A stretch of DNA of 64,000 nt from Anaerolineae bacterium. Its GTDB lineage: Bacteria; Chloroflexota; Anaerolineae; B4-G1. The translations under genes and the position numbers were made by a program. The DNA lies in NCBI GenBank assembly GCA_041687115.1, contig JAWLCP010000002.1, forward strand, positions 2,102 to 66,101, read 5' to 3'. This document shows, piece after piece, positions 8,010 to 62,358 of this stretch. The notes under the pieces were generated by a model. That model was given only the letters and a program-made list of their open reading frames with translations. It was not told the DNA's origin and did not search any database. Within the stretch, counting starts at the first letter, position 1. Each line of letters opens with the position of its first letter.

Positions 8010-9053
8010 TCAACGGGCCCTGATCTGTTCCATGGCCCAGGCGGCGTGCTCCGCCACCAGGGGATTCGGATCAGATCGAGCGACCTCTAGAGATGGGATC
8101 GCAGCCGGGTTGCCCAGATTGCCAAGCACGACAGCCGCGTTTCGCAGTAGCCCGGCACGCCGGGCACGCCAGAGCGGCGTCTCGCGGAATCGCGCGCGGA
8201 AAGCATCCTCGTCAAGCTCCAGCAACTCGAGCAGGTCGAGTGTGGGGTGGAGAGGCTGGAGGCCAGGCTCGTCGGTAGGGCGGGCGAAACGGCGATTCCA
8301 GGGGCACACCTCCTGGCAGATGTCACAGCCGAACACCCGATCCGCCAACAGCGGGCGGAGTGCCTCCGGGATGGCGCCACGGTGTTCCACCGTCAGGTAC
8401 GAGATGCAGCGGCGCGCGTCGAGGGTATGGGGCGCGACCAGCGCACCGGTGGGACACGCGTCCAGGCAGGCGGTACAGCTCCCGCACCGGTCCTCCGACC
8501 AAGGCGTGTCGGGTTCCAGGTCCAGATCGAGGAGTAACTCCCCCAGGAAGAAGTATGAGCCGTGGTCGGGGTGGACGAGATTGGTGTTCTTCCCGATCCA
8601 GCCCAGGCCGGCCTGATGGGCGAGCGCCCGCTCCAGCAGGGGGCCGGTGTCGACGTACGCGCGGTACGTGAGAGGGCGGGCCATCTGACGATCGATCCAG
8701 CTCGCCAGTTGCTCCAACCTCTCCAACATGAGCTCGTGGTAATCCGCGCCCCAGGCGTAGCGGGATACGCGCCCCACCAGCGCCTCCGCAGGCGGACAAT
8801 CGGCGGGATAATAATCCATGCCCACCACGAGGATGGAGCGGATCTCGGGCATGATGCGCCGGGGATCTGCTCGCTTCGCAACGGCGTCGGGGCGCGCCAG
8901 ATAGTCCATCTCAGCGTGGTAGCCCTGCGCCAGCCAATCGGTGTAGAAGGTCGTGGGGACACCGACGGCAGGATCAGTTATGCCGGCCAGGTTGAGGCCG
9001 AGTCGCCAGGCTTCCGCTTTGATGCCGTCTGCCAGATCCTTCATCGCTGGCAC
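8010..9053 (-). CDS. queG: Epoxyqueuosine reductase (4Fe-4S, cobalamin-dependent) with C-terminal HEAT-like repeats
   Basis: Two ferredoxin-type Cys clusters (CGSCTACLDACP, CDICQEVCPWN); conserved QueG N-terminal region. Confidence 0.9.
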   Translation of the reverse strand: MPAMKDLADGIKAEAWRLGLNLAGITDPAVGVPTTFYTDWLAQGYHAEMDYLARPDAVAKRADPRRIMPEIRSILVVGMDYYPADCPPAEALVGRVSRYAWGADYHELMLERLEQLASWIDRQMARPLTYRAYVDTGPLLERALAHQAGLGWIGKNTNLVHPDHGSYFFLGELLLDLDLEPDTPWSEDRCGSCTACLDACPTGALVAPHTLDARRCISYLTVEHRGAIPEALRPLLADRVFGCDICQEVCPWNRRFARPTDEPGLQPLHPTLDLLELLELDEDAFRARFRETPLWRARRAGLLRNAAVVLGNLGNPAAIPSLEVARSDPNPLVAEHAAWAMEQIRAR

Positions 9054-9117
9054 ACTATAACGTACCGGGCAAAGGGTGTCAACGGGACTCGCTCGGCGCC
9101 AATCCCGTGGATTTTAC

Positions 9118-9146
9118 TTGCGTGTTGCCAGGACCCGTGTTATAAT
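9118..9146 (+). promoter_or_regulatory. Sigma-70-like promoter for nusA (TTGCGT - 17 nt - TATAAT)
   Basis: Read directly from the sequence; position counted from the nusA ATG at 9329. Confidence 0.45.
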
Positions 9147-9190
9147 TTCGTTCGGATACGCGCAGGAAGAGACATAGGCGCAGCGGAGAA

Positions 9191-9213
9191 GTGGGGACCC
9201 CCCACTTTTTTTT
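9191..9213 (+). terminator. Intrinsic-terminator-like hairpin plus T8 in the nusA 5' leader (putative autoregulatory attenuator)
   Basis: GTGGGG-ACC-CCCCAC stem-loop (9191-9205) followed by TTTTTTTT (9206-9213). It lies about 40 nt after the predicted TSS and about 115 nt before the nusA ATG. It is on the same strand as nusA, while the upstream gene queG is on the opposite strand. Confidence 0.5.
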
Positions 9214-9328
9214 GTAGAATGGGTGTGTTGTCCTGTTCGTCGGAGGTTGGGTGCCGACGCTTTGGTGTGAGGGGTGACAGTTAGCCAGCTGAAGGCTAAG
9301 CGGGGAAATCCCGTAGCAGGAGACAAGT

Positions 9329-11302
9329 ATGAAGTCGGAATTCTTGTTGGCGTTTAATGAAATATGCAGTGATCGCGGGCTTCCTAGGGCGGTCGTTATC
9401 GACGCTGTGGAGAAGGCGTTGGTCTCCGCGTATCGGCGCAACATAGATGCCAACACCGTGGAGAACGTCACGGCCGAGATCGACCCGACCAGCGGCGAGG
9501 CACGAATCTACGTCCAGAAGGAGGTCGTTGAGGACGTTACGGACCCGGCGTGGGAGATCGGCCTGGTCGAAGCGCGGGCGATCGATCCGGAGGCTGAGTT
9601 TGGAGACTTGATCACCGTCGAGGACACCCCTGATAACTTCGGCCGCATCGCGGCGCAGACTGCCAAGCAGGTCATTCTTCAGCGCATCCGGGAGGCCGAG
9701 CGCGATGTACAGTACGAGCATTACGTCGAGCAAGAGGGCGAGATTGTCCATGGCACTGTCCAGAGCGTCCGGTCGAATGTGGTACTGGTGAACCTGGGCG
9801 GCGCCGAGGCCATTCTGCCGCGTAGCCAGCAGGTGCCCGGTGAGAGATACCACATCCATCAGCGTCTGCGCGCGTACGTGCTGGAGGTTCGCCATACGAA
9901 CCGTGGGCCGAAGATCGTCCTCTCCCGGAGCCACCCGAAGATGTTGCGCCGGCTCCTTGAGCTCGAGGTTCCGGAGATATTCAATGGGACCGTCGAGATC
10001 AAGGCGATTGCTCGCGAGGCGGGCTCCCGCTCCAAGGTTGCTGTGGCCGCTCGCCAGCCGGGCGTCGACCCCGTGGGTGCCTGCGTTGGCATGCGCGGTG
10101 TGCGCATCAAGTCGATCGTGAACGAGCTCGGTGGCGAGAAGATCGACGTCATCGAGTGGAGTCCGGACGCGGCGACGTTCATCGCCAAGGCGCTCAGTCC
10201 GGCCAAGGTGCTGAGTGTGCAGATGGACGAGGATCCGGATGGGCGGAAATCGGCGAGCGTCGTCGTTCCTGAGGATCAGCTGTCGCTCGCCATCGGTCGA
10301 GCGGGACAGAACGCGCGATTGGCGGCGAAGTTGAGCGATCACCGCATCGACATTCAGGGTGTCACCGAGGCGGCCACCTGGGCCTTGCAGCGCGTCAATG
10401 AGGATGCCGACGTGCTGCCGAGCCTGGGTTCGGCGGCGGAGCTGCTTCCCTCGGTCGCCAACATCCTGCAGCGCCACGAAGAGGAAGAGGACATGCCGTA
10501 CTCCAGTGAGGAGTTGCTGAAGATGCGGCGGGTCATCGAGGCGGTGTGGAACCACTACGCGTCGCTGCGCAGCGCCGAGCGGGAGCGCCAGAAGGCGGAG
10601 GAGGACGCCCGTCTCGAGGCCCTGGAGAAAGTGCGCGAGATCATACCCGATGAGGCCTACGAGACGCCTGTCGAGGACATGGAGCTGGCCACGCGCACCG
10701 TCGGCCGTCTGGAGGGCGTCGGATTGGCGACCGCTGGCCAGGTGATGGAGCGCTTGATCGCTGAGGGCGACGAAGGGCTCCTGGAACTGGACGGGATCGG
10801 GCCCAAGACCGTCGAGCAGGTGAAGCAAGGGATCAGCGAGCTTGGCTTGCTCGAGGGCGAACCCGCTCCGACGGAGGAAGAAGCCGTCGGTGAGGCAGAG
10901 GTGGAAGAGGGTGCCGCCGAGCTTGCTCCGGAGGGCGTGGAGGAAGGGGAAGCCCCCGTTGCCGAGGAAGTGGCGCCCGCAGAGGAAGAGGCACCGGCCG
11001 AAGAAGAGGCCGTGGACAAAGCGGCTGCGCTCGAGAGGGCGATGCGATCCCAGGATGTAGAGCCTGAAGAGGGAGAGGTCGGGGTTGAGGAAGAGGAAGC
11101 CGAGGAAGAGGAATTCGAGGGCGAAGGACCGGAGTACTTCTTCGAAGACGAAGAGCCGATCGACCGTGAGGAGAAGTTGAAGCGAGAGCGGGGCCGCCGC
11201 GTCCAGCTGGTGTACGATGAAGAGACGGGCGAGCTGATCCCGCGCCGTCGCCGGAAGCGAGAAGAGGGCCCCGAGGATTGGCAGGAGTATGTGGACTACT
11301 AG
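9329..11302 (+). CDS. nusA: Transcription termination/antitermination factor NusA with a long acidic (Glu/Ala/Pro-rich) C-terminal extension
   Basis: N-terminal domain, S1 and KH1/KH2 regions ([54 protein letters not shown]). The protein is 657 aa because of a C-terminal tail of about 200 aa rich in E/A/P. GGAGA RBS upstream. Confidence 0.9.
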
Positions 11303-11306
11303 TCCC

Positions 11307-11588
11307 ATGGGCAGGCGGACTGTGAGGCGAAAGCATATTCCGCAGCGGACGTGCGTTGGGTGCCGCACGGTGCGTCCCAAGCGAGAGTTGGTGCGCATCG
11401 TACGCACACCCGAAGGATGTGTGACTGTGGACGAGACGGGCAAGCGCAGTGGTCGCGGCGCCTATCTCTGCCCGGAGCCCAGTTGCTGGGAGAGAGCCCT
11501 GTCGAAGGGCCAGCTGAGCCGCGCACTGCGGACGAATCTGACAGAGGAGGTCCGAGCTCGGCTTCGAGAATACGCGGCCGGTCTTTGA
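11307..11588 (+). CDS. ylxR: YlxR/DUF448 family RNA-binding protein
   Basis: RTCVGCR...RGAYLC signature; conserved position between nusA and infB. The track ORF starts at 11289; the likely start is M7. Confidence 0.8.
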   Translation: MGRRTVRRKHIPQRTCVGCRTVRPKRELVRIVRTPEGCVTVDETGKRSGRGAYLCPEPSCWERALSKGQLSRALRTNLTEEVRARLREYAAGL

Positions 11589-11619
11589 CCAGGGACCGGA
11601 GCTTTGATGAAGGGAGTGG

Positions 11620-13434
11620 GTGAAGATGAATGACGAAGTGAGGATCCGGGAAGAGGGCGTCGTTGAGATCCCAGAGTTCCTGACGGTGCGCGAGCTGGCT
11701 CAGCTCCTTGATGTCAGCCCCATCGACGTGATCAAGGAGCTGATGAGCGCCGGCGTGATGGCGAACATCAATCAGGAGATCGACTACGAGACGGCGGCTA
11801 TTGTGGCGCAGGAGATGGGTTTCGAGCCTGTGGAGGAATCTCAAGTCGCTGTCGAGGAGGTCGCGGAAGAGGGGCCAAGCCCTCTGTGGGAGCGATTCTA
11901 CGCCGGTGAGGCTCCCGAGAATCTGAAACCGCGCCCGCCCGTGGTCACAACTCTGGGACACGTGGATCATGGAAAGACGTCGCTGCTGGATGTCATCCGC
12001 CATACGAACGTGGCCGGCGGCGAGGCGGGGGGGATTACCCAGCATATCGGCGCCTATCAGGTGCAGCACGACGGACAACTCATCACCTTCATTGACACGC
12101 CCGGTCACGAGGCTTTCACGGAGATGCGGGCCCGGGGAGCGCACACCACCGACATCGCCATCCTGGTGGTAGCGGCCGACGACGGCGTCATGCCGCAGAC
12201 CATTGAGGCTATCAATCACGCCCGGGCTGCTCGTGTCCCCATCGTGGTGGCGCTCAACAAGATGGATCTGGCCACCGCTCAACCGGAGAAAACCAAGCAG
12301 GAGCTGGCCGATCAAGGTCTGGTACCTGACGATTGGGGCGGAGAGACGCTCTGCATCCCCGTCTCCGCCAAGGACAAGACAGGCCTGGCGGATCTCCTAG
12401 ACGCCCTCCTGCTCGTGGCGGAGGACTCCGAACAGATCAAGGCGAATCCGGACCGCCCAGCGATGGGCACGGTCCTGGAAGGCCGCCTGGATCGAGCGCG
12501 CGGCGCGACGGCGACGGTGCTGGTGCAGAATGGGACATTGTATATCGGGGATGACATCGTTGCAGGGCTCAGTTGCGGCCGCGTGCGGCAGATGATCGAC
12601 CAGAACGGAGAGCCGATAAGGGAGGCGGGGCCTTCCACGCCTGTTCTGGTTCTCGGTCTGTCCGATGTGCCTGAGGCGGGGGAGATTTTCAAGGTCGTCG
12701 CGGAGTCCTGCATCGCCCGTGAGATCGTCGCCCAGCGTGAGGACGAGCTTGCGGCCGAGGCTCCCGGGCCCTTGCGGACGTTTACGCTCGACGACTTCGC
12801 TAGCCGGATCAAGGCTGGAAGGGCGAAGGAGCTCAACCTCATCATCAAAGCGGACGCACAGGGCTCCATCAGTCCCATCGTCAGCTCGTTGGGGCAATTG
12901 GGCGATGAGGAGTTGAAGGTCAACATCCTCCACGCTGCAACGGGGAGCATTGGCAAGTCGGACGTCAACCTGGCTATCGCCTCTCGGGCGATTATCATTG
13001 GCTTCAACGTGAGGCCAGATCCGGCCGCGCGTAACCTGGCGGAGAGCGAGGGCGTGGACATCCGGACGTATGACATCATCTACAAGCTGATAGATGACGT
13101 CGATCAGGCGCTGAAAGGATTGCTCGAACCCACGTACGTCAAGGTGCTGGTGGGGGAGGCGGAGGTGCGCGATACGTTCCACATCCCCGACCTTGGCACC
13201 GTGGCCGGGTGTTACCTTCGCAAGGGAGAGGCGAGGAGAAACGCCAGGGCCCGGGTCATTCGAGATGGCAATCAGCTGCACGACGGTCCTGTCTCTTCGC
13301 TCAAGCGCTTCGCGGAGGACGTCCGTACGGTTCGGAAGGGCTACGAGTGTGGGGTGGGGCTAGCTGGCTTCAGTGACTTCGAGATTGGCGACGTGATCCA
13401 GTTCTACGAAGAGCGGGAGCAGCAGGCCGAGTAG
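11620..13434 (+). CDS. infB: Translation initiation factor IF-2 (short form lacking the long N-terminal region)
   Basis: [25 protein letters not shown]-domain motifs; 604 aa. Confidence 0.9.
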
Positions 13435-13464
13435 TGCTGCAGAGCTGGAGGGCATTGAATCGCG

Positions 13465-13836
13465 ATGGGCAAAAAGTATCAACGCCGTGTATCGGAGCTC
13501 GTTCACGTCCGCTTGTCCAACCTTCTGGAGCGCGAAGTCAAGGATCCGCGCCTGGATATGGTCACCATCACCGACGTGGTGGTGACGCCCGACGCAGCGC
13601 GCGCCAACGTCTACTTCACCGTGCTGGGTGGAGAAGGGGCGGTCAAGCAGGCTCAGGAGGGGCTGGAAAGCGCGGCCGGTTGGCTGCGTCGTGAGCTGGG
13701 CCGAGAGCTGCGCCTGCGCAGGACACCCGAGCTGGTCTTCCACTACGATCGTTCGGTGGAGAGGGGCGAACGGATCGCTGCAATACTCGACGAGTTGGGA
13801 CTCGGTGACGAAGAGAGCGACACTGAGGCGAGCTAG
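13465..13836 (+). CDS. rbfA: Ribosome-binding factor A
   Basis: RRVSELVHVRLSNLL...VTITDVVVTPD KH-like RbfA fold motifs. Confidence 0.9.
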   Translation: MGKKYQRRVSELVHVRLSNLLEREVKDPRLDMVTITDVVVTPDAARANVYFTVLGGEGAVKQAQEGLESAAGWLRRELGRELRLRRTPELVFHYDRSVERGERIAAILDELGLGDEESDTEAS

Positions 13837-14803
13837 CCAACTCATTCGAGAGGCTGATCAGCCTCTACTCATATGTCACGTCGCCCCGGATGGTGATGCC
13901 CTCGGAAGTCTGACCGGGCTGGCTCGGGCGTTGCGCCGGATCGGTCAGTCGCCAATTGCGGCGTGTGCCGACGGTGTTCCTTCCCGGTTCAACTATGTCC
14001 CGGGTGTCGAGTCGGTCGTTCAGGAAGTGAACGATTTCTTCGATCTGGTGATTGCCGTCGACTGCTCTCACCCGGAGAGGTTGGGGCTGTTTCGTGAGCT
14101 GCCCCACTTCGATCAGCATCCTCTGATCAATATTGACCATCACGTCACCAATGTCGGTTTTGGTGACGTCAATGTGGTCGATCCCCGCGCATCATCCACC
14201 GCTGAAGTCATCCTGGAGTTGCTCGATCACCTCCATGTCAACCTTGACGAATCGTTGGCCACCTCCTTGCTGGTCGGCATCGTCACCGACACGCGTGGAT
14301 TCCGTACCAACAACGTGACGCCGCAGGTACTCCGAGCTGCCTTGCGGTTGATGGAGGCCGGGGCGTCGCTGCCCTATGTCAGCCAACACGGTCTGGATCG
14401 AAGGCCGATGGCTGTCATTCGCTTGTGGGGGGCCGCCCTTTCCCGCCTTCGGTCTGAGGACAGCGTCGTCTGGTGCACTATCCCGTTGAGCATGCGGCGT
14501 GGGGTCGGCTATCAGGGCGGGGGCGACGCCGGGTTGGCGAGTTTCCTGCTGAGTGCCGACGAAGCCGACATCTCCCTCGTTCTCGCCGAGCAGGAGGATG
14601 GCCGAATTGATGTGGGGATGCGTGCCGCTCCTGGTTTCGACGTCGCCCGGTTCGCACTCCGCTTCGGGGGAGGCGGCCATGCCCTTGCTGCCGGCTTCGA
14701 CACGGAGGGGCCACTGGATCAGGCAGAGGAGCGGGTGTTGGATGCCTTGCGGGCCGACCTGACCGATCAGCGGGCGTCCGACGCTGGGACGCCAGACGCC
14801 TAG
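13805..14803 (+). CDS. nrnA: DHH/DHHA1 phosphoesterase (NrnA-like nanoRNase / pAp phosphatase)
   Basis: CHVAPDGDALGS (DHH motif I), DHH (INIDHHVTN), GGGHALAAG (DHHA1). The track ORF 13628..14803 overlaps rbfA; the likely start is the in-frame GTG at 13805. Conserved rbfA-nrnA-truB order. Confidence 0.8.
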   Translation: MTKRATLRRASQLIREADQPLLICHVAPDGDALGSLTGLARALRRIGQSPIAACADGVPSRFNYVPGVESVVQEVNDFFDLVIAVDCSHPERLGLFRELPHFDQHPLINIDHHVTNVGFGDVNVVDPRASSTAEVILELLDHLHVNLDESLATSLLVGIVTDTRGFRTNNVTPQVLRAALRLMEAGASLPYVSQHGLDRRPMAVIRLWGAALSRLRSEDSVVWCTIPLSMRRGVGYQGGGDAGLASFLLSADEADISLVLAEQEDGRIDVGMRAAPGFDVARFALRFGGGGHALAAGFDTEGPLDQAEERVLDALRADLTDQRASDAGTPDA

Positions 14804-14810
14804 ACAAGGG

Positions 14811-15743
14811 ATGCCTCACGGAGTCCTGAACGTCGATAAGCCGCTTGGAGAGACCTCGCACGACGTTGTGGAGCGCGTGCGGGAGCTGACCGGCGTTCGC
14901 CGTGTCGGTCATGCGGGTACCCTGGATCCGCTGGCGACCGGTGTGCTGCTCGTCTGTGTTGGCCGGCCTGCCACCCGTGTCGCCGAGTTTCTGATGGACA
15001 GGCCGAAGACGTATCGCGCGGAGGCTCGGCTGGGGCTCACCACCGATACGTTCGATGCCGAGGGTCGAATCGTCGCCAAATCGCCCGTCGACGTGGGTCG
15101 GGATCAGGTTGAGGAAGCACTGAACCGGTTCCGAGGCTCCATTGAGCAGCTCCCGCCCATGTACTCCGCGGTCAAGCACAAGGGGAAGCCCCTCTATCGC
15201 CTCGCTCGCCAGGGCATCGAGGTGGAGCGTGCCTCGCGTCGAGTTGAGGTCTATCGTCTGGAGCTGGTCGAGTGGGACCCCCCGGACTGCTCGCTGGAGA
15301 TGAGGTGCTCGGCCGGGACCTATGTGCGGGTGCTGGTTCACGAGCTCGGTCAGGCCCTCGGCTGCGGTGCCTACGTGACCGGCCTGACTCGGCTTGCCAG
15401 TGGCTCATTCCGTCTGGAGCATGCGGTAAGCCTGGACCGATTCGCTCACATGGCCAGGGAGAGCCGCTGGCCTCAGTTGCTTCTTCCCATCGACGATGCC
15501 CTCACCGATCAGTTCCCGGCTCTTACGCTGGATGAGGATGCAGCGCGACGGCTGTGCTCCGGACAGATGCTCCAGCGTGGTGGCACGGAGGCCGAAGACG
15601 GGGCATGGGTCCGGGTGTACGGACCGGAGGGTCGCTTCCTGGCGCTGGCCTCCTATGATGCGGGCGATGAGGTCTGGCGTCCGCGGAAGGTGTTCGTCTC
15701 CCCATATCCGGGACCGGGTTCCGAGCTCGACGAACGAGGCTGA
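14811..15743 (+). CDS. truB: tRNA pseudouridine(55) synthase
   Basis: GVLNVDKPLGETSHDVV, GHAGTLDPLATGVL catalytic-Asp motif. Confidence 0.9.
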   Translation: MPHGVLNVDKPLGETSHDVVERVRELTGVRRVGHAGTLDPLATGVLLVCVGRPATRVAEFLMDRPKTYRAEARLGLTTDTFDAEGRIVAKSPVDVGRDQVEEALNRFRGSIEQLPPMYSAVKHKGKPLYRLARQGIEVERASRRVEVYRLELVEWDPPDCSLEMRCSAGTYVRVLVHELGQALGCGAYVTGLTRLASGSFRLEHAVSLDRFAHMARESRWPQLLLPIDDALTDQFPALTLDEDAARRLCSGQMLQRGGTEAEDGAWVRVYGPEGRFLALASYDAGDEVWRPRKVFVSPYPGPGSELDERG

Positions 15744-15746
15744 TCG

Positions 15747-16691
15747 ATGCGCATTGTCCACCGTCTGAGCGAAGTACGTCCACCGTCACGTTCCTACGTC
15801 ACTGTGGGCGTCTTCGATGGGGTACATCGGGGTCACCAGCGGATCATCGGAGGCCTGGTGGATGCAGCCCGCGCCACAGGGAACGACGCGGTCTCCGTTA
15901 CCTTCGACCCTCATCCGGCTGCTGTGCTGAGTGAGACCGCCCCCCTTCTGTTAACCACGATTGGGGAGCGGATCGAGCTGATGGCGGACCTCGGGCTGGA
16001 CACGCTGGTTGTGTTCCCATTCACCGAAGAGGTTGTGCGTACCCCGGCCGCTGATTTCGTGGAGAGCTTGGTGCACCATCTCCGTCTGGCCGAGCTGTGG
16101 GTTGGGCCGGATTTTACCCTTGGCCACGAGTGCGAGGGGGACATCCCGTTCCTGCAAAGCATGGGGTGTCGCCGCGGGTTCAAAGTGCGGGTCGTCGAGC
16201 CGGTGGAGTGGGGAGGCGGTGTCGTCCACAGCAGTCGTGTGCGAGAGGCTCTGCGCCGAGGAGACGTCCGGGAGGCGACCGGTTGCCTGGGCCGTCCCTA
16301 TCGGCTGTCCGGGGTCGTTGTCCATGGGCGCGGAATTGGCCAAGATATCGGCGTGCCCACGGCCAACATCTCACCGCCGCCAAATCGCCTCGTTCCCGCC
16401 GGGGGGGTCTACGCGTGTTGGGCGCACACGGAGCGGTGGGGTACATTCCCGGCGGCGGCCAACATCGGCACCCGCCCGACGTTCACGGCCAATGCCCAGG
16501 GTCTGACAGTGGAAGCGCACTTACTCGATTTCGACCGCCGGCTCTACGACCAGGTGTTGGGGCTCGATTTTGTCAAGCGCTTGCGGGACGAGCGTACCCA
16601 CCCCACGTTGAACGCGTTGGTAGCGCAGCTTCGGGAGGATATCGCGCAGGTCAGAGCGCTTCTGGCTGAGAGAAACCCCGGCGAAGGATAA
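15747..16691 (+). CDS. ribF: Bifunctional riboflavin kinase / FMN adenylyltransferase
   Basis: GVFDGVHRGHQ nucleotidyltransferase motif; C-terminal riboflavin kinase (PTANI...GVY). Confidence 0.9.
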   Translation: MRIVHRLSEVRPPSRSYVTVGVFDGVHRGHQRIIGGLVDAARATGNDAVSVTFDPHPAAVLSETAPLLLTTIGERIELMADLGLDTLVVFPFTEEVVRTPAADFVESLVHHLRLAELWVGPDFTLGHECEGDIPFLQSMGCRRGFKVRVVEPVEWGGGVVHSSRVREALRRGDVREATGCLGRPYRLSGVVVHGRGIGQDIGVPTANISPPPNRLVPAGGVYACWAHTERWGTFPAAANIGTRPTFTANAQGLTVEAHLLDFDRRLYDQVLGLDFVKRLRDERTHPTLNALVAQLREDIAQVRALLAERNPGEG

Positions 16692-60578: not shown

Positions 60579-61822
60579 TGCTGGCTCCCCTCGTCCGGAG
60601 CGGGGGTGACCGCCCTCCGCGCCTCCGTCAATGCCATCAGGCCCCCGGCCACCACCGAATGCCCACCCATCACCACTGGGACAGGGGCATCCGCTGCGGC
60701 GCGAGTGAGGCGGCGCAAGAAGGGGTCGTCCACATGGTGCCAGCGGTAGAGATCCGCATGGAACCGGTCGATCGCCGATGGCCACAGGTTTCTGGCCGCC
60801 AGAATGACCCGGTTGTCGAGTAGGATCGCGTTGGCAAGCCCCCCCAATCCTTCGAAGAACCCCTCAATCCCCACCAGATCGAGGTAGTCGGCCAGGAGGG
60901 AGCGCACCGCTCCACTCGCCTGCCGCCCACTCGCTCGCATTCCTCGTTCCTCGGCGAACACCCGCACCCAGCACTGAGTGCTTTCTTCGAGGGAGCGCCA
61001 AGCTGCCGAGGAGGCGCGACCCGCCACGATCAGGCTTCCGCCCTCGCGTCCCATCTCGCTCAGCACACCATCCAGTTGGGGGCACTGCCAATCGAGTCTG
61101 TCCAGGTGCCTGCGCAAGTGTGGGCCGATCCCTGGGTGACGGTGTGCGATCAGCAAGTCCGCTGGGGTGTCGATGTCGAACCGCGAGCTGGCTGACGCTT
61201 TCATATCCTCCGCGGGAAATCCAGCCTCGTGAGCCAGTGCCCAGGCGATAGCGTTGTCGTTCACCTGGTCGGCGATCAGCCAGCAAGCCTCCTCGGACGG
61301 CGTGAAGGCAGCCCAGTCGGAGGAATGCACGTTGTTCGTGATCACCAGGCGCTTCGCCCGCCCTAGCCTGTCCACGACCCTGGCCCACTCGTTCCCCTTC
61401 AACAGTGGCGCAGAGCCACCTCCTGTGTAGAGCACCCGGTCCGCATCATATCGCTCGATCAACTCCGCCAGGCGCCGCCCGAAGTGAAAAGGCTCATTGA
61501 CGGGGTCCAGGTCTACCTCCACCGGAAGATCGGCCAGGGTGGTGGTCCAGGATGGATCATCGGTGGCGACGACGGCGAGACCGATCGATGGGATGGGCAA
61601 GAGCGTCTCCAGCAGATCCCGGGCGGCTGCGCGGTGGGCGCCGTCTACAGCTTGCTCCACCTCGCTGTTCCCCGATCCTCCGGTCAGGAGGAAGAGTGTT
61701 GTCTTTCCCATGCCCGCGCCCTGTTCACGCAAACTGCCTTCATCAGCAAGAGGGGGCTCGCTCGCCGACCCCCCTCTCTGTCTATCCTGGCGCTCCCAGG
61801 CTCTCTTGGCGTTTGTGATCAA
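60575..61822 (-). CDS. Hypothetical two-domain protein, probably about 380 aa starting at MGKTTLFLLTGGSGNS
   Basis: Globular composition; translationally coupled to hpf upstream (4-nt overlap) and to the LMW-PTP downstream. I recognise no family. Confidence 0.55.
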   Translation of the reverse strand: MITNAKRAWERQDRQRGGSASEPPLADEGSLREQGAGMGKTTLFLLTGGSGNSEVEQAVDGAHRAAARDLLETLLPIPSIGLAVVATDDPSWTTTLADLPVEVDLDPVNEPFHFGRRLAELIERYDADRVLYTGGGSAPLLKGNEWARVVDRLGRAKRLVITNNVHSSDWAAFTPSEEACWLIADQVNDNAIAWALAHEAGFPAEDMKASASSRFDIDTPADLLIAHRHPGIGPHLRRHLDRLDWQCPQLDGVLSEMGREGGSLIVAGRASSAAWRSLEESTQCWVRVFAEERGMRASGRQASGAVRSLLADYLDLVGIEGFFEGLGGLANAILLDNRVILAARNLWPSAIDRFHADLYRWHHVDDPFLRRLTRAAADAPVPVVMGGHSVVAGGLMALTEARRAVTPAPDEGSQQ

Positions 61823-62358
61823 CCCACCTGGGGCTGAAGCAGCCCGTAGTTGCCATCTCTTCGCTTGTAGACGGTGTTGATCGTGCCTTCCTCAGCGTTC
61901 AGAAAAACGAAAAAATGATGCCCCAGAAGCTCCATCTGCTCGATGGCTTCCTGGGGCGTCATCGGTCGCACCTCGAACCGCTTGACGCGGACGATCTCTC
62001 CCTCGGCCTCTTCCTCGACGGGCTCTTCAAGGGGGAGTGCCTCGACCCGTGACTGCCAGCGGTCCTGGCGCTTTCCCTTGTAACGCGCGATCTGCCGGTA
62101 CATCTTGTCCAGGACCGCGTCGATGGAGGCGAAAATGTCGCCTGTCCGCTCCTCCGCCCGCAGGATCGTACCGCGCGTCCACACCGTCAGCTGCGCTACC
62201 TGTCGGTCCTCATCGCTGCGTGTGTCCTCCACTTCCAGATCCAGCCGCGCCTCGTCGATGGTGGGCAGATAGCGATCCAGCTTCTCGACCTTGCTCTCTG
62301 CGTATTCCTGCAGACGCGGCGTCATCTCTAGCTTGCGGGTGAAGATAGATAGTTCCAT
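61819..62358 (-). CDS. hpf: Ribosome hibernation-promoting factor, long form (HPF/YvyD)
   Basis: MELSIFTRKLEMTPRLQEYAESKVEKLDRY N-terminal RaiA fold plus C-terminal dimerization domain (FVFLNAEEGTINTVYKRRDGNYGLL). Confidence 0.9.
   Translation of the reverse strand: MELSIFTRKLEMTPRLQEYAESKVEKLDRYLPTIDEARLDLEVEDTRSDEDRQVAQLTVWTRGTILRAEERTGDIFASIDAVLDKMYRQIARYKGKRQDRWQSRVEALPLEEPVEEEAEGEIVRVKRFEVRPMTPQEAIEQMELLGHHFFVFLNAEEGTINTVYKRRDGNYGLLQPQVG

Follow-up and report, generated by a model that had tools for sequence, protein, structure and literature searches.

A probable rimP-leader-type attenuator directly upstream of nusA in an Anaerolineae bacterium

The nusA locus

The window, i.e., the whole 64,000-nt stretch of Anaerolineae DNA analyzed here (~63% G+C), carries a co-directional block composed of nusA, ylxR, infB, rbfA, a DHH-family (nrnA-like) gene, truB, and ribF. 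The first-pass annotation of this DNA had listed these genes in the same order, which is confirmed by the ORF list and Pfam, and had noted that the usual rimP gene is absent upstream of nusA. The latter point is borne out within the window, as an HMM built from 50 RimP sequences does not find RimP in the 64 kb or in the nusA loci of 12 relatives. A rimP gene could be encoded elsewhere in the genome.

The nusA ORF (9329–11302) encodes a protein of 657 residues that contains NusA_N, S1, and KH domains according to Pfam. The KH domains are followed by a highly acidic, low-complexity extension of ~300 residues (residues ~350–657), which does not match Pfam and includes a single HhH-like stretch. 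For some relatives, the alignment with NusA of the window is limited to residues 1–508.

The gene on the other side of the leader, queG, is divergent and starts leftward at 9043 or 9053, ruling out that the leader hairpin described below is the terminator of an upstream gene. On the minus strand, queG is preceded by a near-consensus promoter (TTGACA-17-TATAGT; promoter and ATG together occupy 9041–9082). The queG ATG (9043–9041) is only 10 nt past its own −10 element in the window; the queG mRNA therefore probably has little or no leader. Promoter and ATG are arranged likewise in four of the relatives' loci (L003, L007, L008, and L009).

The nusA leader and the downstream operon comprise the following features, each given with the evidence for it.

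9118–9146, + strand: predicted σ70-type promoter (sequence reading; conservation in 12 of 12 relatives)
9156–9191, + strand: 5′ leader segment with a tandem duplication of ~17 nt (alignment with relatives)
9189–9213, + strand: P1, predicted rimP-leader terminator, with stem AAGUGGGG/CCCCACUU, loop ACC, and then U8 (folds, CM R1, and conservation)
9238–9269, + strand: P2, second hairpin CGUCGG...CCGACG (9238–9259), and then an interrupted U-tract CUUUGGUGUG (terminator scan and conservation)
9281–9286 and 9294–9299, + strand: P3, clade-specific small hairpin UUAGCC/GGCUAA (seen by eye)
9301–9304 and 9310–9313, + strand: P4, clade-specific small hairpin CGGG/CCCG (RNAalifold consensus)
9315–9331, + strand: ribosome-binding site GGAG (9319–9322) and nusA start codon (9329–9331) (invariance in relatives)
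9329–16691, + strand: co-directional block from nusA to ribF (ORF list and Pfam)

All features proposed in the first pass are found, including a TTGCGT-17-TATAAT promoter and a GC stem-loop followed by eight Ts before nusA, but some of the coordinates were wrong by at most one base.

Promoter and terminator-like hairpin

The promoter reads as a −35 element TTGCGT (9118–9123) and a −10 element TATAAT (9141–9146) separated by a 17-nt spacer. The −10 element is of the extended type (TGtTATAAT, 9138–9146), with the TG at 9138–9139. The position of the promoter predicts a start site at ~9154.

The core of P1 is composed of GTGGGG (9191–9196), the loop ACC (9197–9199), and CCCCAC (9200–9205), and two flanking A-U pairs extend the stem to 9189–9207. 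The T8 run occupies 9206–9213, and 115 nt separate it from the nusA ATG (9329). The hairpin and its flanks (9180–9216) fold with an energy of −17.6 kcal/mol (z = −3.7), and none of 200 shuffled sequences is as stable, indicating that the folding energy of the stem-loop proposed in the first pass is not negligible. The energy of the core stem by itself is −11.3 kcal/mol, and that of the clade consensus is −8.4 kcal/mol.

Neither the promoter nor P1 is flagged by a consensus promoter and terminator scan of the window. The promoter is missed because TTGCGT matches TTGACA at only three of six positions. P1 is probably missed because its purine-rich 5′ flank (GAGAAG) can pair with the T-tract and so consume the tail.

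The T8 run is the sole T-run of at least five on the + strand of the 64 kb. Canonical long-U-tract terminators seem nearly absent from the genome. The window also has five A-runs of at least five, and the sole A-run of at least six (61910–61915) is inside a coding region.

The leader segment 5′ of P1 is only ~35 nt long. No alternative pairing with the terminator arms is conserved in a 16-sequence consensus fold, and the long-range pairs of the single-sequence MFE structure are not conserved.

Conservation in Anaerolineae relatives

A protein-guided scan of species-representative genomes yields 12 Anaerolineae/Thermoflexales MAGs, whose NusA proteins are 77–91% identical to that of the window over the best-matching segment. 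All 12 relatives have TTGCnn-17-TGnTATAAT followed by an invariant ATAG, and all 12 have GAAGTGGG, a loop, CCCCAC, a T-run, and then [G/A]TAG. Ten relatives have T8 at this position, one has T7, and one has TTCT6. This run is the sole T-run of at least six on the nusA strand of each locus, except for a second terminator in L004. The stem of P1 is invariant and its loop is variable, and the sequences 5′ of the −35 element and 3′ of the T-run diverge freely. The element is not a chance occurrence, given that it is kept in 12 of 12 relatives with diverging flanks and that CM R1 (described below) matches only P1 in the window. As the stem does not vary, covariation is absent from the clade, and the pairing of P1 in the clade variant therefore rests on family-wide covariation.

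The 5′ leader segment contains two copies of the duplicated sequence, ATACGCGCAGGAAGAG (9156–9171) and ATAGGCGCAGCGGAGAAG (9174–9191). Among the aligned relatives, the extra copy is found only in the window and its closest relative, L099 (13370–13552, minus strand). The distance between the −10 element and the hairpin is 24 nt without the duplication, and increases to 41 nt in the window and 37 nt in L099.

A clade-conserved AUAG is located in the 5′ leader segment (9174–9177 in the window) and is invariant across the clade. The idea that (A/G)UAG is a site for the KH domains of NusA reportedly originates from an M. tuberculosis NusA–RNA structure, and the (A/G)UAG 5′ of the hairpin is a possible candidate for such a site. 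Across the family, (A/G)UAG is weakly enriched (73 of 121 segments, with 57.8 expected; z = 2.7 without correction for 64 trinucleotides), and the 5′ segment is not conserved family-wide. The motif lies ~10 nt 5′ of the hairpin, and it is common as AUAGUAG or GUAGG in Oscillospiraceae and is seen in some published Firmicutes leaders.

P2 is detected by the terminator scan, and its tract is interrupted (CUUUGGUGU). Eleven of the 12 relatives keep P2, in which one compensatory change and two G-U changes are seen. In L004 (~2895–2935) and L160, P2 is followed by T7 plus GTAG, constituting a second full terminator in tandem. In the remaining relative, L007, P2 is gone as part of a deletion that spans the whole interval from the first T-run to the ribosome-binding site, and the T-run is ~30 nt from the ATG. 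To judge from its sequence, P2 may be a weak second terminator or a pause site. We also considered P2 as a tRNA-like structure or a mimic of the initiator-tRNA anticodon stem (UCGGG...CCCGA) and rejected both, since the loops are 7–10 nt long, variable, and devoid of CAU.

P3 and P4 (9281–9313) are directly 5′ of the ribosome-binding site. The arms of P3 are TTAGCC/GGCTAA in the window and TTGGCC/GGCCAA in L001, and the RNAalifold consensus shows changes on both sides at two of the four pairs of P4. The sequence of the ribosome-binding site (GCAGGAGA) and the ATG are unchanged in all relatives.

Association of the motif with nusA

We scanned metagenome contigs with the exact pattern GAAGTGGGNNNNCCCCACTTTTTT (GAAGTGGG-N4-CCCCAC-T6) and obtained 109 copies, compared with ~1 copy expected by chance for 20 specified bases according to a rough estimate. 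We examined 80 of the loci. In 68 of them, nusA is downstream on the same strand (NusA 34–94% identical to the query), and in seven others the motif is followed by a rimP gene and the contig breaks off inside this gene or shortly past it. Altogether, 75 of the 80 copies precede nusA or rimP-nusA. Four copies are on contigs that end too soon for the context to be judged, and only one is elsewhere (L158, 4813–4836). The motif is thus tied to nusA across loci, unlike a generic terminator. The L158 copy is inside a larger inverted repeat and has no promoter-like element.

The 68 loci fall into two classes. In 15 loci, rimP is located between the motif and nusA. In the other 53, the motif is 35–165 nt from nusA and RimP is undetectable anywhere in the examined DNA.

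P1 belongs to the rimP-leader family

The rimP-leader (Naville & Gautheret 2010, Genome Biol 11:R97; PMC2965389), termed the most ubiquitous transcription attenuator, is described as a terminator that is short, highly conserved, and located in the 5′ UTR of rimP-nusA-infB in most bacteria. Its stem has an unusual conserved GGGc...gCCC motif followed by a U-stretch, and an antiterminator is not visible in the leaders as described there (PMC2965389). NusA has been proposed as the likeliest feedback factor, and RimP as an alternative (PMC2965389).

P1 resembles the single-hairpin form of this family (Fig. 2b and Supplementary data 1 of PMC2965389) in its G-rich 5′ arm, C-rich 3′ arm, and GGG/CCC core. 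A U-stretch follows directly 3′ of the hairpin (here U8, 9206–9213), the hairpin is in the leader of a nusA-infB operon at a distance of 115 nt from the first gene (4–130 nt from the gene start in the published leaders), and the window leader likewise has no antiterminator. The published rimP-leaders of Chlorobium (GAAAGTGGGGGATCCCCACTTTTTTG), Nostoc (GGAAGTGGGTTAATGCCCACTTTTTTT), and Syntrophobacter (AGAAGTGGGTTTACCGGCCCGCTTTTTTT) are nearly identical to the window hairpin (PMC2965389). The window element differs from the rimP-leaders as published in several respects. The first gene is nusA instead of rimP, which the window does not contain; the U-tract (U8) has no interruption and is of unusual length; and the clade-specific P2 and then the small hairpins P3 and P4 follow. 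The host class here is Anaerolineae, and no Chloroflexota member appears in the published list of rimP-leaders (Naville & Gautheret 2010).

We built CM R1 from an alignment of 43 published rimP-leader members only, so that it is independent of the window and of the relatives' data. In an unfiltered search of both strands of the 64 kb, R1 matches 9182–9215 on the + strand (25.8 bits, E = 0.0037), and this is the only match with E < 5. The other matches (E > 5) are the mirror image of the same hairpin and 61904–61944. The latter, which is the second-best match, is rejected as a terminator because it is within an HPF-like ORF. This ORF (61819–62358, minus strand) has, by eye only, the C-terminal sequence typical of a long hibernation-promoting factor (EAIEQMELLGHHFFVFLNAEEG). 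In 80 control loci selected by NusA protein similarity, and hence unbiased for the motif, R1 matches at the expected upstream position in 72, and only two off-site matches occur in the 533 kb of these loci.

At the three core positions, 41, 37, and 38 of the 43 published members have a G-C pair, and the orientation is never reversed. The outer pairs covary in the published alignment, e.g., from A-U to G-C in 15 sequences. Oscillospiraceae stems show a like pattern (GAGTGGGG/CCCCACTC, GACTGGGG/CCCCAGTC, GAGAGGGG/CCCCTCTC, and GTGGAC/GTCCGC).

The Rfam family RF01770, "Gammaproteobacteria rimP leader", is a 102-position, two-terminator model. It gives no match at E ≤ 10 in window 8900–9500 or with an 86-nt query (9150–9235) (threshold 47 bits). 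As a positive control, the E. coli metY-rimP spacer scores 102 bits. RF01770 misses the window element because it covers only the gammaproteobacterial two-terminator form, and Rfam has no model for the general single-hairpin form. The 3′ hairpin of the E. coli metY-rimP-nusA leader (CUGGGCU..GGCCC-U7) is nonetheless a terminator of the GGG/CCC type upstream of the same operon; the difference is that the RF01770 form adds an upstream CCCCG/CGGGG terminator and sits after a tRNA-fMet gene. An Rfam gathering-threshold scan of 18 related loci detects only tRNAs.

From these comparisons, we consider it probable (~80%) that the window leader is a rimP-leader-type attenuator of the nusA operon, in which termination at P1 and feedback by NusA are inferred. 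The first-pass reading of the hairpin as a candidate attenuator is supported, but it did not recognize the known, near-universal rimP-leader, and the element is less novel than it implied.

Proposed mechanism and alternatives

RNA polymerase would start at ~9154 from the TTGC-17-TGnTATAAT promoter and transcribe, ~35 nt on, the short G-rich/C-rich hairpin and U8. A fraction of the polymerases would terminate at ~9210–9214, releasing an RNA of ~60 nt (~45 nt in relatives without the duplication), and the remaining polymerases would read through into nusA-ylxR-infB-rbfA-nrnA-truB-ribF. Since an antiterminator structure is absent, a protein must set the terminated fraction. NusA, as the most likely factor, would stimulate hairpin-dependent termination and thereby exert negative feedback on its own operon. 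P2 with its interrupted U-tract may serve as a second checkpoint.

NusA of B. subtilis controls its own expression by stimulating termination in its 5′ leader (Mondal et al. 2016, via PMC12288461), and E. coli NusA represses its operon (Plumbridge 1985 and Nakamura 1985, cited in PMC2965389). The window leader is like the B. subtilis leader in having an intrinsic terminator in the 5′ leader of a NusA-encoding operon and in the proposed negative-feedback logic. The B. subtilis leader is ~180 nt long and precedes rimP (ylxS) (PMC2965389), whereas nusA comes first here; and NusA dependence, which is proposed from sequence here, has been demonstrated by experiment only for the B. subtilis leader. 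Together with the NusA feedback proposed for the family, the B. subtilis precedent supports in kind the NusA attenuator put forward in the first pass.

The statement that P1 is exactly of the type required for NusA-stimulated termination was overstated. In B. subtilis, terminators that depend on NusA are typically marked by a suboptimal hairpin or by interruptions in the distal U-tract (PMC8060035). The short, modest stem of P1 (−8.4 to −11.3 kcal/mol) is loosely like them, but the perfect U8 is not, and substantial factor-independent termination is therefore possible. Termination at P1 could even be largely factor-independent. By the same comparison, the profile of a weak terminator would suit P2, with its interrupted tract, better than P1.

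It is accordingly conceivable, albeit unlikely, that P1 is a real attenuating terminator whose sensor is not NusA. Such a terminator would constitutively dampen a strong promoter or would respond to another factor, which could be NusG, RimP encoded elsewhere, YlxR, RbfA, or NTP/UTP levels at the U-tract. By B. subtilis criteria, the perfect U8 and the fully paired stem look fairly factor-independent, and the terminal A-U pairs and the T-rich non-template strand resemble features of NusG-stimulated termination (PMC8060035). RimP was considered by Naville & Gautheret, too (PMC2965389), but the sequence of the motif is unchanged in the window and in the 53 of 68 loci without detectable rimP. The rimP-less context favors NusA over RimP as the factor served by the element and its putative sensor, because rimP is absent from the window, the loci of the 12 relatives, and the 53 metagenome loci. 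In addition, NusA-stimulated leader termination has been shown in B. subtilis (PMC12288461), and a GGG/CCC core with a fixed orientation across phyla suggests specific recognition, which argues against a generic terminator.

The strong-looking promoter, the canonical terminator within ~60 nt, and the clade-conserved AUAG in the 5′ segment would also fit a separate small RNA gene of ~45–60 nt with its own promoter and terminator, in which case a different promoter, or incidental read-through, would account for most nusA expression. We consider this very improbable. Comparison of the relatives reveals no conserved second promoter between P1 and nusA, and the T-run of L007 is only ~30 nt from the ATG. 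Moreover, the element accompanies nusA or rimP-nusA across phyla, the 5′ segment lacks family-wide conservation, and Rfam has no relevant sRNA match for the region.

Finally, 5′-proximal hairpins can protect mRNAs, and P1 is near the predicted 5′ end, but a stem-loop that stabilizes or processes the mRNA, or a coupling pause site, without release of the transcript is hardly credible, since the T-run that directly follows the stem is conserved to the same degree as the stem and is otherwise unique in a 63% GC genome, which is the signature of termination and not of stabilization.

The rimP-leader-type attenuator is a known family and not a new mechanism, and the established picture is unchanged. 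Three points are modestly new: a Chloroflexota instance of the rimP-leader directly before nusA in a context lacking rimP, a promoter–hairpin spacing that is consistent and common with Oscillospiraceae, and the retention of U8 in a genome almost without long T-tracts. The most widespread bacterial attenuator is thus present, nearly unchanged in sequence, in uncultured Anaerolineae as well, and the U8 underlines the strength of selection on it. Whether nusA or rimP is the target of the element was left open by the original description, and there is now a comparative argument for nusA. The annotation of the locus is refined, and the coverage of Rfam, limited to the gammaproteobacterial form, is shown to have a gap.

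Promoter–hairpin spacing

Forty-eight motif-bearing loci have a good promoter, and in 29 of them the −10 element ends 23–25 nt before GAAG, i.e., 26–28 nt before the GTGG core. In Oscillospiraceae, 47 of 50 loci have a TTG(C/A)-type −35 element (TTGC in 43), a 17-nt spacer, and TAnnnT, and the distance from the −10 element to the GTGG core is 21–32 nt (median 29, with one outlier at 12). The Oscillospiraceae rimP-leader differs from that of the window clade in its longer stem and interrupted U-tract (CUCUUUCUUGUUG) but has the same promoter and leader architecture. The conserved spacing suggests a testable mechanistic constraint. We find no discussion of promoter-to-hairpin spacing in the portion of Naville & Gautheret 2010 used here (PMC2965389).

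Very tentatively, the promoter and hairpin could be one ancient cassette common to Chloroflexota and Oscillospiraceae, with the orientation-fixed GUGGG/CCCAC stem as a sequence-specific operator for NusA and not RimP; we consider this proposal as a whole possible but doubtful. The cassette may consist of a TTGC-type −35 element, a 17-nt spacer, an often extended −10 element, and the G-rich arm at a fixed 27–32 nt. NusA is not known to recognize a specific sequence. If the proposal is true, the fixed position puts the U-tract at approximately +45 to +55, where termination could report the loading of NusA on the early elongation complex, and the terminator would be a direct gauge of free NusA.

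In the Oscillospiraceae loci L014–L080, cTTGCA-17-TGnTATAAT is found ~500–650 nt upstream of nusA, followed by 27–32 nt to the GTGG core.
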